Notes: generated by a model not told the origin, from the letters alone. 64,000 nucleotides of DNA from Promethearchaeota archaeon (GCA_013375475.1 JABXKD010000006.1:13301-77300), one strand, 5' to 3'; counted from the first letter of the stretch, positions 513-55,592 are shown. Numbers and translations are program-made.

Positions 513-529
513 TATTTAAAGAAAAAATT
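513..529 (-). promoter_or_regulatory. T-tract + TATA promoter motif (AATTTTTTCTTTAAATA)
   Basis: Plus strand reads tatttaaagaaaaaatt, about 57 nt upstream of ATG 456. Confidence 0.7.
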
Positions 530-574
530 GTATGTCGAGAAAAATCAAATAGAAAAATAAAAAAGTAGTAGTAA

Positions 575-1732
575 TTAATTTCGCTTTCTCCGTCGTTGAG
601 AAGTAAATAACTTCACATTTCGAATTATCTTTTCTCGATTAGGATCACGATCTAACTGCTTTTGGATTAAATCACTAAGTTGGCTTTTAGTCATTCCCAT
701 TTTCTCTAAAGCAAAATTAAATCCTTGTTCGTTAAACTTGCCTTGTTTTATTAAAGGAGAGATTTGTTTCATCGTGATTACCCATTTCTTCCTTACAGTT
801 GGATCTTGACGAATGAGTTCCGAAAATTGTAAAGCGTAGGGAACTATTCCATACCGGTTCAGATCGTAAAAAGAAGCAGCCATTATAATGTGACAACTTG
901 TTTTTAGTGTGCTTGAATTTCCTTTTTTCACTAAATTTTTCGACTCAACTAGCTCTACAATCTTGTCTTCTTCGTAATCTACTACGTGATACGGAAGCAA
1001 TATTCGAGGAAGAATATGGTTTTTCACTTCCTCTTGAGTGATAAAATGGCTTCGATCTCCTTTGGTAAAAGGATCTTCCCAGAAGAATTGGGGCATCCAT
1101 TCCTCTATTATCTCGTGTTGAGGAATTTCGTAGAAATATCGTCTAATTTCGTCTGGAGAATATCCAAAGAGAATTAATTCAATATTTTGCTTTAAGGCTT
1201 CTTTCACAACTAAGGCATGGACTAAGTCGCTGCAGGCTTCGCACATCGAAGTAGTTAAGCATCTATCTTCCGAATCCTGATGTAAAAACATCCATTTGTA
1301 CAATTTTGGGAATGTCTCTTTAGCACTATCAATTATAACATGATCTACATGAATTTTTTGAAGAGTATCCCTCACGTTTTCAAATGCGGTTTCCGGAATA
1401 AATCCAGAATCTATAGTTACAGCAAGAGGGTTAAGGTTATACTCGTTTACCATTTTCCATAGAAGCGCAGTGGAATCCTTTCCGCCAGAATATCCTACAA
1501 TACAATCATATTTATGCTTTCCTCGTCTCGATTGTGCTCGTTTTATTGCTTGTTGCCAATCTTTAAGGCCTTCTCGTCTCATTTCTTCCGTTATTTGAGT
1601 TTTCCACCAAGAAGGCGTTTTATACTCAGGGTCTTCGCAGTAGTTACATAACCCTGTGGAAGCGTTGACAGAGACGCCTAAGCTTCCATCGAGTAAAATG
1701 CATTTTTTGCACATGTGTTCAGGTTCTATCAT
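575..1732 (-). CDS. PP-loop ATP pyrophosphatase, N-acetyl-sugar amidotransferase-like
   Basis: N-terminal CxxC...CxxC, then YDCIVGYSGGKDS PP-loop and CEAC motif. Confidence 0.75.
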   Translation of the reverse strand: MIEPEHMCKKCILLDGSLGVSVNASTGLCNYCEDPEYKTPSWWKTQITEEMRREGLKDWQQAIKRAQSRRGKHKYDCIVGYSGGKDSTALLWKMVNEYNLNPLAVTIDSGFIPETAFENVRDTLQKIHVDHVIIDSAKETFPKLYKWMFLHQDSEDRCLTTSMCEACSDLVHALVVKEALKQNIELILFGYSPDEIRRYFYEIPQHEIIEEWMPQFFWEDPFTKGDRSHFITQEEVKNHILPRILLPYHVVDYEEDKIVELVESKNLVKKGNSSTLKTSCHIIMAASFYDLNRYGIVPYALQFSELIRQDPTVRKKWVITMKQISPLIKQGKFNEQGFNFALEKMGMTKSQLSDLIQKQLDRDPNREKIIRNVKLFTSQRRRKRN

Positions 1733-1777
1733 AATTCTTTCTTATTTCATTATTTTATATTTTTCATTAAATTCTTC

Positions 1778-1794
1778 TATTTAAAGAAAAAATT
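1778..1794 (-). promoter_or_regulatory. T-tract + TATA promoter motif
   Basis: tatttaaagaaaaaatt in a divergent intergenic region, upstream of 1732. Confidence 0.7.
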
Positions 1795-1874
1795 TCAAAT
1801 TGAATGCTAGTCAATGGAAATCATTTATAAGATTAGATTTTCTTATTAATTCTTGGGTTTTGTAATCGTAAATC

Positions 1875-53173: not shown

Positions 53174-53701
53174 ATGTTCGTTCCTAAAGCACTGTATGAG
53201 AATCAAGTTTCTAATGTTTTGGATGATATTCGCTATAATTACGGAATGCTAACCCGGAAAGGATATATATACGGTCTTATCGCAATCGACCAAGACGCTA
53301 AAATCATTGCGGTAGATTCCCGGTTTGATCGTAAACTGAATTACTGGGACTTAAGCTCGATAGGTGCGGCTTTATATGGAGTCGCTCGTCAAGCCCAAGA
53401 TTTTTTCGATACTGACTCTCTAGTCCGAGCTACTTTAATCTACAAGGATCTACAGCTCTATGTCAAATCGATCGGTGATATCGCTCTTACTAAAAAAGGA
53501 AAAAGGGAGATTTTAGTTGTTCTCTTAGTGGATAACATGGTTAATATTGGGGTCTTAATTCTCCAAATGAGAAAGTTTTCGATTAAGCTAAAGCAGGAAA
53601 TAACCAAAAGTCAAGTGGTTATGAACAAGTTACAGATGAGCGAACAAGAACTTAAGGAACACCTCAAAGACCTCAAAAAAAGAGTGTTTGAATCTACATA
53701 A
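53174..53701 (+). CDS. mglB: Roadblock/MglB-like protein
   Basis: IDQDAKII, LSSIGAALYG, VNIGVL; upstream of an MglA-like GTPase; exact motif promoter at 53111-53128. Confidence 0.7.
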   Translation: MFVPKALYENQVSNVLDDIRYNYGMLTRKGYIYGLIAIDQDAKIIAVDSRFDRKLNYWDLSSIGAALYGVARQAQDFFDTDSLVRATLIYKDLQLYVKSIGDIALTKKGKREILVVLLVDNMVNIGVLILQMRKFSIKLKQEITKSQVVMNKLQMSEQELKEHLKDLKKRVFEST

Positions 53702-53725
53702 ATTTCATTCGAGGTTGATAAAAGC

Positions 53726-54379
53726 GTGATAGTTGATTCGAAAGATAAGAAAAAAGATAAAGTAGCAATAAGTGGTGAATCTAGCACAAGTATTTTAAAA
53801 GAGGTGTTACAGTTCAAGATTGTCTACTGGGGTCCGGGTGAATCGGGTAAAACGACCAATTACTTTCGTCTTAGAGAGAAATTTGACGGTGTGAAATTAA
53901 ATTCGGGTTACTCTATCGAAACAACTGATGGTCGAACTTTATGGCAAGACTCAATTCGCTTATCTTTTTACTTGAACCTTAAAGATATAAAGTTCAACAT
54001 TATTACTCAAATCGTAACGGCAACTGGACAAGAGCGTTTTTTATCTACTAGAGAATACGTGCTTGATGGAGCTGATGGAGTTGTATTTGTCGCCGATTCA
54101 GATCCTGAAAAGATGGAGCAAAATAAGCGTAGTTTTCGAGAATTAATAAGTTTTACCCAAGATAAAAACATTCCCTATGTAATTCAACTCAATAAGAGAG
54201 ATATAGAAACTGCTATTTCTCTTAAAGATTTTAAAAAAGAGTTAGGATTACCTCAAGCAGAAGTATATGCTGATAATACGCTTGTTGTGTATCCAACGGT
54301 GGCGTTGGAAGGAGATTCCGTTCGATTGTGTTTTGAAGATTTAATGATGCAAATAATTTTCAATTATTTTAAAGAGTAA
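53726..54379 (+). CDS. mglA: MglA-like small GTPase
   Basis: KIVYWGPGESGKTTN, GRTL, TGQ, GADGVVFVADS, NKRD motifs. Confidence 0.85.
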   Translation: MIVDSKDKKKDKVAISGESSTSILKEVLQFKIVYWGPGESGKTTNYFRLREKFDGVKLNSGYSIETTDGRTLWQDSIRLSFYLNLKDIKFNIITQIVTATGQERFLSTREYVLDGADGVVFVADSDPEKMEQNKRSFRELISFTQDKNIPYVIQLNKRDIETAISLKDFKKELGLPQAEVYADNTLVVYPTVALEGDSVRLCFEDLMMQIIFNYFKE

Positions 54380-54400
54380 ATTAAAAGATATGAGAATACT

Positions 54401-55543
54401 ATGGACACTGGATACGACTTTATTACCCCCGAGTTTTTAAATATTTTATTCTTTACCCAAAAGAACCTAGTAATATATCCGTACGTTGATGTAAAACATA
54501 TTCACTCCTTAGATTGTTTTACTGTTGGACATGATCTGATCGATATCGATTCTACTGGTTTAGAAAATCTTCACGATATCGTTGAGTTTGAGATAAATAA
54601 CTCGTATTCACAACAACCAACCCTTTATTATCTTTTGAACGTAAACATGGAAGATATTGAGAAATTGTTGGAATCTCCAAATATCCGCTGCATAATAAAC
54701 GCTTCTGATAATGTGGAACATCTAGCGAACGGGAATAAATTTATTTTCTATAACAAAAAAAGCAATTCTTTTCTCAATTATCAACCTGAGAGAGAGAATC
54801 TTTCCTTTGAAGAACACCTTATTCAAACATCTCAAAATGAAGAAGTTTTATTGGATGAAATTCTTAAAATAAAAAGCACTGCAACTAAAATTTATTCTGA
54901 TGTAAACGCGAACACCAATTCAGACAACCTCCCGGCGCTTTTGAGCGACTACGATCAAGAGTATTGGGATAAAATTTTATTTTTTACAATGCAATATTTC
55001 AACGTAGAAATTCCAAAATTCACCAGACCAAAAACTATATTGAAGAAAAAGAGTCTAGCCTCGTTAAAGGATTTCTCTTACGAGTACGAATTTATTTTAA
55101 AAACGAATCGTAAAATAGGACAAAAATTCATTCAATTGCTTCACGATTATCGATTCGATAAAGTTAATCCTGCCAATTTAGAGATAGATCAGCTCTATTA
55201 TCCTAAGAAATTGTACAATTATCTAAGAAATCGCCATTGGGCAAAAGGAATTCCACAAGATTTTATCACAAATTGGGTTCAAAAATTACGTACAAATTCT
55301 CAGTTAGACGAAAACGATCGTTTAGACTTCCAGATTATTTTTGATAAATTACAAATAATCCCAGTACAGAAATTCCACGTAATCCAGGAAATTCAACCCG
55401 TAAAAGAGCCAATTGAAGATATTATAGAGATAAATAATACGACTTCAGAAAGAATTGTAGAAGCAATACCTCCAATTGAGAATTTCCAAGAATTTAAAAA
55501 TTGGTTGTTAAAAAAATTAGATGAACTCCAGAGCCTCATTTAA
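54401..55543 (+). CDS. Hypothetical protein, co-transcribed with mglBA
   Basis: 380-aa ORF 21 nt after mglA. Confidence 0.6.
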   Translation: MDTGYDFITPEFLNILFFTQKNLVIYPYVDVKHIHSLDCFTVGHDLIDIDSTGLENLHDIVEFEINNSYSQQPTLYYLLNVNMEDIEKLLESPNIRCIINASDNVEHLANGNKFIFYNKKSNSFLNYQPERENLSFEEHLIQTSQNEEVLLDEILKIKSTATKIYSDVNANTNSDNLPALLSDYDQEYWDKILFFTMQYFNVEIPKFTRPKTILKKKSLASLKDFSYEYEFILKTNRKIGQKFIQLLHDYRFDKVNPANLEIDQLYYPKKLYNYLRNRHWAKGIPQDFITNWVQKLRTNSQLDENDRLDFQIIFDKLQIIPVQKFHVIQEIQPVKEPIEDIIEINNTTSERIVEAIPPIENFQEFKNWLLKKLDELQSLI

Positions 55544-55592
55544 ACGAGTTTTACGAATTTTTCTTTAAATAGAACGAATTGATCTTGAATCC

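Follow-up and report, generated by a model that had tools for sequence, protein, structure and literature searches.

TFB paralogues with regulons of their own are known from the haloarchaeal TFB families. In Sulfolobus, TFB3 controls the UV response and the Ups and Ced systems of DNA exchange (PMC6101591), and TFB2, which serves division genes, works with similar TFB recognition elements (BREs) at a different spacing, according to bioRxiv 10.64898/2026.09.06.749720. The canonical archaeal promoter (TBP plus TFB; P. woesei 1D3U) has the BRE directly upstream of the TATA box, and the BRE consensus of M. jannaschii, MRCCGAAAAG, is purine-rich (PMC2602779). The present analysis concerns a 64,000-nt stretch of DNA from a Promethearchaeota archaeon (GCA_013375475.1, JABXKD010000006.1:13301-77300), referred to below as the window, in which many genes are preceded by a promoter element with a run of T residues (T-run) at the BRE position, and which also encodes a divergent TFB-like protein, designated TFB-X. 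As in the canonical system, a TATA-like octamer lies at promoter distance with a conserved block immediately ahead of it, and a TFB-fold protein is encoded, but the block consists of T5-8 followed by C or G, and the candidate reader has a changed helix and falls below Pfam thresholds. As in the TFB-paralogue regulons, a paralogous general factor is proposed for a dedicated gene set, and this set, like that of the Sulfolobus TFB3 response, holds recombination/repair genes together with membrane proteins. It differs from these regulons in that the targets are clustered with the factor and the case is known from sequence alone, and from TFB2 in that the element itself differs.

The window is part of contig C255 (positions 13301-77300) of the source genome, G000, which comprises 3.92 Mb in 288 contigs. 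Genomes of relatives, labelled Lokiarchaeota or Hermodarchaeota in the sources, and their contigs are coded in the same way (Gnnn and Cnnn). A preliminary description of the window had listed 26 sites of a T-tract promoter lying in gene orientation upstream of starts. All 26 coordinates carry A-T(5-7)-C/G-TTTAWAWA or a close variant on the side indicated. The layout is a run of 5-8 T, then 1-2 C/G, then an 8-bp TATA box (TTTAAATA, TTTATATA or TTTATAAA), and the T-run occupies the BRE position of archaeal promoters, abutting the TATA box at fixed spacing. With a position weight matrix (PWM) trained on 22 window sites and scored in bits, 21/26 sites reach at least 15.9 bits, and the five weaker variants (20988, 24083, 28648, 45921 and 46152) score 9.7-14.1 bits. 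The 16-mer AATTTTTCTTTAAATA with up to three mismatches has 32 matches in the window against 16.8 expected, a number reached in 0/100 shuffles. Likewise, the window has 24 PWM matches of at least 14 bits, whereas 100 first-order Markov simulations averaged 1.74 and never exceeded 7.

A co-oriented open reading frame (ORF) starts 13-66 nt past the 3' end of the TATA box at 24/26 sites, small ORFs included. These distances fall into two groups, ~13-35 nt and ~45-66 nt, which may reflect leaderless and leadered mRNAs, respectively. The two outliers are the site at 39991, preceding radA, whose N-terminal part starts upstream of the first ATG, and that at 20847, which is an additional site in front of 20989 and has no ORF at the usual distance. 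All strict sites (18/18) are intergenic. The gene-oriented TATA-like box at promoter distance that is expected of an archaeal core promoter is present, and the purine-rich BRE is not: in the boxes of C255, positions -8 to -2 are 55-80% T, and C is found at -2 and -1 in 45%. The motif is, by these features, the predicted core promoter of about 23-26 transcription units, and the placement at promoter distance in gene orientation is as originally described.

Divergent intergenic regions, in which many of the sites had been said to lie, indeed hold 12/26 of them, and the other 14/26 follow a co-oriented gene. Oligo-T termination is established in archaea, and at the latter sites the T-run could be taken for the oligo-T terminator of the preceding gene, abutting the next promoter. 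This interpretation is very improbable: the T-run is not simply the terminator of the upstream gene, because at the divergent sites there is no gene to terminate, and the spacing from T-run to TATA box is fixed. In addition, T-run and TATA box are retained together ahead of orthologues, irrespective of the neighbouring gene. A dual role as terminator and promoter is possible at the tandem sites.

Within the source genome, the motif is concentrated on C255. The sequence TTTTTCTTTAAATA has 13 exact copies in the genome, 9/13 of them on C255. Using crude ORF calls, TTTNTTTAWATA, which combines T-run and TATA box, is found in 9/55 upstream regions of C255 and in 14/1751 of the other contigs, and TTTAAATA in 16/55 and 137/1751, respectively. 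C255 also holds 21/54 PWM matches of at least 16 bits, a count that is circular for this contig since the PWM was trained there. Among the 45 off-contig matches of at least 15.5 bits, 21 are inside crude ORF calls, and a co-oriented ORF starts within 100 nt of only 5. Where a TATA-like octamer is well placed, T makes up at least 5/7 of the residues ahead of it (positions -8 to -2) in 13/20 boxes on C255 as against 28/351 elsewhere, which agrees with the distinct promoter class proposed originally; outside C255 these positions are mildly A-rich. The regulon had, however, been called dispersed, and this did not hold, as the sites are restricted to one contig and one island of ~55-65 kb; this confinement rules out a genome-wide regulon. 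Strong off-contig copies were observed at G000:C233:32188, C9:1693 and C33:51577. One of these precedes a paralogue of the island gene 10381-11616, one adjoins a paralogue of the CoiA-type nuclease, and the third is near a gene whose homologue in G008 sits inside the island. These copies may represent outlying members of the regulon.

Genes interspersed among the motif genes had been assigned purine-rich BREs. The four sequences quoted for them are present as written, but their status as true BREs is weakly backed. A search for a host promoter consensus by expectation maximisation (EM; zero-or-one-occurrence model, ZOOPS) in 1846 upstream regions gave ~3 bits without a positional peak, and a sharp consensus was not found upstream of 23 tRNA genes. 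As no sharp host consensus emerged, only the mild A excess points to a purine-rich host BRE.

The motif is found essentially on one contig of an assembly with an estimated contamination of 6.4%, and C255 makes up 2% of the genome. Hence, mis-binning of C255 from an organism whose ordinary promoters look like the T-run class would produce the same picture. This is scarcely credible. The tetranucleotide signature of C255 is ordinary (rank 22/84 contigs), and mis-binning is contradicted by the related contig G008:C20 (411 kb), in which the motif cluster is bounded and its flanks match other G000 contigs. A homologue of the whole of C255 lies at about 227-302 kb of G008:C20, and when 140 kb were scanned, 23/24 sites of at least 14 bits were located within 234,462-298,337. 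The flanks consist of genes with G000 homologues on C218 and C210 (63-85% identity) and contain almost no sites. Since this cluster sits within a 411-kb contig, the region is not a mis-binned contig but a bounded chromosomal island of ~55-65 kb with borders resolved to a few kb, and such islands occur in one family of Asgard archaea. The chromosomal neighbours of the island are the same in G016 and G008:C20.

A separate observation concerns G000:C263 (16.9 kb), the strongest tetranucleotide outlier among the contigs. It carries tRNA-Ile and tRNA-Ala directly after an apparent 16S rRNA 3' end, an arrangement typical of bacteria, and may be a contamination of the bin.

The gene order between ~21 and 56 kb of the window is common to nine homologous loci from seven genomes of the same genus, in which the same motif is dense. 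Conservation was assessed for orthologues of 17 motif genes by scoring the 140 nt upstream; alignments starting after residue 25 and upstream stretches shorter than 60 nt were dropped, and 20 genes (non-motif first genes, flank genes and operon-internal genes) served as controls. In nine related islands, the 14-bit level is reached by 57/74 orthologue upstream regions and the 12-bit level by 63/74, at similar distances to the start, whereas 0/59 control regions reach 12 bits. One of the 57, that of FEN1 in G002, is a locus-edge artefact. Thus, the conservation upstream of orthologues that the preliminary description had suggested as a check was found. Furthermore, a homologue in the G008:C20 region exists for 22/23 motif-bearing first genes, compared with 8/17 non-motif first genes of the island (Fisher p 7e-4). 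The motif therefore marks the conserved core of the island, and the non-motif genes are largely variable cargo.

A candidate reader of the T-run is encoded inside the island. The ORF at 33753..35027 on the minus strand specifies TFB-X, a protein of 424 aa with a zinc ribbon, two cyclin repeats and a C-terminal extension of ~140 aa. Alignment of the TFB-X family (23 sequences) with 8 host TFBs by hhalign gave a probability of 97.1% (E 6.3e-11) over 254 columns, which span the zinc ribbon and both cyclin repeats. The zinc-ribbon residues C24, C27, C41 and C44 are invariant in the 23 TFB-X sequences and align to the host TFB ribbon. In the AlphaFold2 model, residues ~100-320 mostly have pLDDT (predicted local distance difference test) values of 75-92. 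All 27 Foldseek matches of the model with E <=0.001 (27/27) are pre-initiation complex, TFB, TFIIB or Brf2 entries, and its comparison with 1d3u_B, the P. woesei TFB core on BRE/TATA DNA, gave TMt 0.76 and a root-mean-square deviation of 3.5 Å. Two JGI records name TFB-X relatives 'TFIIIB Brf1/TFIIB', and one relative carries PF08271. TFB-X alone, compared with solved structures, gave a chance-level match only, and a six-frame search with PF00382 gave no match on C255 at E <=10. On the evidence of the family alignment and the model, TFB-X is a highly divergent homologue of TFB/TFIIB.

In human TFIIB, V and R of the helix in the second repeat contact the BRE. The helix-turn-helix of this repeat reads TE[VA]T[LIV]R.R in 8/8 host TFBs and.MST[IV][HQ].Q in 23/23 TFB-X sequences, which have S and H (Q in one sequence) at the positions of V and R. 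Hence, TFB-X does not have the canonical recognition helix of the C-terminal repeat. The TFB-X gene itself has a promoter with a TATA box but no T-run, and the best upstream PWM score is at most 2.4 bits in 5 relatives. The different initiation factor suggested originally thus has a candidate, a divergent TFB paralogue within the island, which may read the T-run. At its C-terminus (window 33753-33770), TFB-X has an invariant G-P-P-x-x-C in which Cys is the last residue.

TFB-X was found in 97/134 genomes of the family and in 1/26 genomes of other families of the class (E <=1e-15), and, at E <=1e-10, in 34/42 genomes of the genus, in some of which it is a shorter paralogue only. In two genomes with several copies of TFB-X, the motif accompanies them. 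G093 has three copies, two on one contig, with motif sites clustered around each, and the three copies of G008 (on C20, C12 and C49; the compared C20 and C12 copies are 69% identical) are on the contigs with the densest motif clusters. In G112, a complete genome of another genus, sites are located on both sides of the single copy. Four genomes that are at least 95% complete have no TFB-X match; G033, G035 and G036 have no cluster, and G050 has one on a contig that starts inside the gene adjoining TFB-X. At this level of completeness, motif copies against those of a reversed control number 38 vs 18 in genomes without TFB-X and about 170 vs 58 in genomes with it. Clustering was used in place of genus-wide counts because the genus-wide correlation is not clean.

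On balance we lean, modestly, towards an island promoter class in which the T-run promoters would be read by TFB-X, whose own promoter, having no T-run, would allow a master-switch cascade. Host TBP would bind the TATA box, and TFB-X, not a host TFB, would read the T-run through its altered helix-turn-helix, set the direction of transcription and recruit RNA polymerase. As the TFB-X promoter is without a T-run, a host TFB could switch on the TFB-X gene, and TFB-X could then switch on the whole island. TBP is represented in G000 by one full gene on C214 and a half-match on C272, with none on C255. A bacterial alternative (ECF, extracytoplasmic function, or phage) sigma factor is similar in being a dedicated initiation factor with a distinct element and a switch-like cascade, but belongs to an unrelated protein family and polymerase system and is an analogy only.

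Several observations weigh against reading of the T-run by TFB-X. Pfam assigns 0 families to TFB-X at E <=0.01, neither the TFIIB nor the zinc-ribbon gathering scores being reached, and the AlphaFold2 model, with a mean pLDDT of 61, is confident only at residues ~100-320. The helix argument draws on the roles of the corresponding residues in TFIIB, and the host consensus used for comparison is weak. Counts of the exact motif across the genus do not split cleanly by the presence of TFB-X; for example, in three genomes that have it, exact copies against the reversed control are 2 vs 3 (G012), 2 vs 2 (G017) and 2 vs 5 (G053). Co-location of TFB-X and the motif is expected from inheritance of the island alone and is not proof of recognition. 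Finally, at least nine further TFB paralogues, all canonical, are present in G000 (on C234, C222, C241, C219, C11, C244, C155, C262 and C279) and could read the motif.

The abundance of host TFBs also favours an alternative in which the T-run acts as an intentionally weak BRE, or as the site of another island factor such as the zinc-ribbon proteins 37595 and 55593; an activator would recruit host TFB, and TFB-X would have some other role. Weak-BRE promoters that depend on an activator are known for TFB-RF1 in Pyrococcus (PMC5937170) and EarA in Methanococcus (PMC5512572). Several of the small zinc-ribbon proteins of the island themselves carry the motif. However, such activators bind further upstream of the TATA box and BRE, whereas the conserved block of the island abuts the TATA box at fixed spacing, where TFB contacts DNA. 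Moreover, every island examined has its own dedicated TFB, with a recognition helix that is non-canonical and invariant across the family. This alternative is unlikely but deserves to be kept in view.

TFB genes have also been found in Asgard viruses and 'enigmatic MGEs' (mobile genetic elements), as reported in bioRxiv 10.1101/2021.07.29.453957 and PMC13700489. In WyrdV1, the 10H_0 and 7H_42-like elements and JinchiV1, as in the island, a TFB gene is part of an accessory, sometimes multi-copy block; within the available text of these papers no cognate promoter motif is described, and the word 'promoter' occurs 0 times in that of bioRxiv 10.1101/2021.07.29.453957. The island could by analogy be an integrated mobile element, plasmid-like or conjugative, with uniform strong promoters read by the host machinery and TFB-X as one more mobile-element TFB. 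The patchy distribution of TFB-X (97/134 family genomes), its multiple copies in several genomes (G093, G008) and the paralogous replication and repair genes carried by the island fit this explanation, which we nevertheless consider decidedly improbable. Unlike the viral and mobile elements, the island has no capsid, integrase or other hallmark that could be found, and its chromosomal synteny is kept, as in G016 and G008:C20. Pfam searches of 70 ORFs (60 in the window and 10 in the first 13.3 kb of the contig) revealed no integrase, recombinase or virion hallmark, and PHROGs matched 0/10 unknown core proteins. No TFB-X relative was found in IMG/VR, and the single match of TFB-X among phage records, to the TFIIB-like gene of Lokiarchaeota virus WyrdV1, is weak (22.7% identity, E 1e-4). 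The composition of C255 is ordinary, as noted above. A mobile element would also leave unexplained why the TFB-X gene alone is without a T-run.

The core of the island contains second copies of recombination/repair genes, as judged from Pfam (60 window ORFs) and NCBIfam. These encode RadA, a paralogue of FEN1 (36% identity to the canonical copy, which is on C11), an OB-fold protein resembling RPA, Hef-like and Hel308-like helicases and a RadB/KaiC-like ATPase; helix-hairpin-helix (HhH) proteins and a CoiA-type nuclease also belong to the recombination/repair group of the region. Many membrane proteins, two small GTPases and some proteins that match no known family are encoded as well. Compared with their nearest paralogues elsewhere in G000, the island genes show 23-63% identity.

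At the left end of the window, the minus-strand sites 513..528 (21.5 bits, 56 nt to start, in a tandem context) and 1778..1793 (22.2 bits, 45 nt to start, in a divergent region) are the predicted promoters of ORF 1-456(-) and of ORF 575-1732(-), which encodes a PP-loop-like protein, respectively. The adjoining non-motif block at 1875-8354, with a Ras-like GTPase, a GT2/PIG-L/BshC-like unit, an amidohydrolase and a URO-D-like gene, is absent from the G008:C20 island and looks like cargo inserted into the island. The site 9728..9743(-) precedes ORF 8502-9671(-), whose orthologue upstream regions score 23.0 and 20.9 bits. It is followed by a divergent pair, consisting of 11668..11683(-), with 17.9 bits, for ORF 10381-11616(-), and 11705..11720(+), for the ThiF-family ORF 11779-12648(+), the latter supported by PWM, position and Pfam. 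A four-gene unit at 18478-12724(-) would be transcribed from 18529..18544(-), with 23.4 bits; it encodes membrane proteins with transmembrane-like segments and a 1261-aa protein. A lead suggesting that this last protein is HerA/DUF87-like (Atlas score 0.91) was rejected, as a regular-expression search found no Walker A motif in it and Pfam, NCBIfam and PHROGs gave no match.

The assignment of 20816..20831(-) to the HhH protein ORF 18916-20787(-) is supported by PWM, position and Pfam. On the opposite strand, the weaker variant 20989..21004(+), with 13.2 bits, is the predicted promoter of the Hel308-like helicase ORF 21057-23576(+), and 20847..20862(+), with 15.9 bits, is the extra site, 194 nt before this ORF. 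Further weak variants are 24083..24098(+), with 14.1 bits, ahead of ORF 24146-24430(+), and 28649..28664(-), with 9.7 bits but kept as a variant in 5 relatives, ahead of the unit 28626-25338(-), which encodes a 191-aa protein, the Hef-like DEAD helicase and a DUF1922 zinc ribbon. Between them, 25044..25059(+) is assigned to ORF 25087-25341(+) from PWM, position and orthologue upstream regions. The gene next to that of TFB-X, ORF 30673-33615(-), specifies a protein of 980 aa that has a toroid repeat of the prenyltransferase type, and is preceded by 33669..33684(-), an assignment based on PWM, position and Pfam. PWM, position and Pfam/NCBIfam likewise point to 35607..35622(+) as the promoter of the unit 35650-37491(+), with two membrane proteins and the RadB/KaiC-like ATPase.

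Two sites are located ahead of genes for small zinc-ribbon proteins of no known family. These are 37558..37573(+), kept in 8 relatives, for ORF 37595-37972(+), and 55556..55571(+), for ORF 55593-56018(+); the latter is the last site, near the right edge of the island at about 56 kb. The two proteins are paralogous, are both kept in related islands and may be regulators.

Between these sites, 44555..44570(-) is the predicted promoter of the unit 44506-43156(-), on the basis of PWM, position and orthologue upstream regions, and 45192..45207(+) that of ORF 45221-45457(+), a 78-aa membrane protein with a homologue in G008:C20. The weak variant 45919..45934(-), with 11.5 bits, precedes ORF 45491-45886(-) and is kept in 8 relatives, and 45947..45962(+) lies, by PWM and position, ahead of the 37-aa ORF 46017-46130(+). 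The second FEN1 paralogue, ORF 46189-47283(+), is assigned the weak variant 46154..46169(+) from PWM, Pfam and orthologue upstream regions. The RPA-like OB-fold ORF 48741-49685(+) is similarly assigned 48690..48705(+), with PWM, Pfam/NCBIfam and orthologue upstream regions in agreement. Evidence from PWM, position and orthologue upstream regions links 47301..47316(+) to ORF 47383-48000(+) and 52371..52386(+) to the DUF998 membrane ORF 52441-53106(+). The unit 53174-55543(+) encodes a roadblock-like protein of 175 aa, a small GTPase and a 380-aa protein, and would be served by 53113..53128(+), as judged by PWM and orthologue upstream regions; the roadblock-like assignment is a lead only.

By PWM, radA (about 40060-41314, +) is likely to be transcribed from 39991..40006(+). 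Its N-terminal HhH part (window about 40050-40153) is in frame before the first ATG, and there is no ATG, GTG or TTG after the preceding stop. Hence, radA probably has a non-canonical start about 60 nt past the site. RadA also carries an extra C-terminal HhH domain. The reading frame is broken by a 31-nt insertion at window 40846-40876, between the codons for GGN and IVAH, and removal of the insert restores the frame. A different 31-nt insertion is located at the identical site in radA of G008:C12 (locus L017, about 13172-13202), and the gene is uninterrupted in G008:C20, G002 and G005. Both inserts form hairpins with compensatory changes. In the G000 fold, a 4-bp helix lies between two 3-nt bulges that are 31 nt apart, an arrangement with the bulge-helix-bulge geometry of splice sites. 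The minimum-energy fold of L017 does not show the same structure, and the helix there was read by eye. The 31-nt insert is a candidate mini-intron in a protein-coding gene.

A keyword search of the literature revealed no description of a T-run BRE or of a TFB-X paralogue, although supplementary tables, which were outside this search, may hold some. The novelty lies in a pyrimidine element that takes the place of the BRE and that, in Asgard archaea, is paired with a very divergent TFB encoded in the same cluster. A more far-reaching view is that the island is a self-contained Asgard module with a TFIIB-like factor, a Brf-like C-terminal extension and a pyrimidine BRE, acting as a master switch for recombination (RadA, RPA, FEN1, Hef, Hel308) and a membrane/GTPase programme. 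It would then be a counterpart of the TFB3-controlled DNA exchange of Sulfolobus and a present-day illustration of how members of the TFIIB family become specialised for separate promoter classes, like TFIIB, Brf and Rrn7 in eukaryotes; this view is speculative, and we think it rather unlikely in its entirety.

TFB paralogues are thought to partition archaeal transcription, but cases in which a single paralogue is cleanly matched to a clearly distinct element are rare. Here, sequence data by themselves yield a sharply defined, conserved and non-canonical element in place of the BRE, ~25 target units that form a closed list, and a dedicated, divergent TFIIB-like candidate reader, all in relatives of the archaeal ancestor of eukaryotes. 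Recognition of the T-run by TFB-X is directly testable with a few recombinant proteins and promoter fragments. It would also give a handle on when these organisms express their second set of recombination genes.

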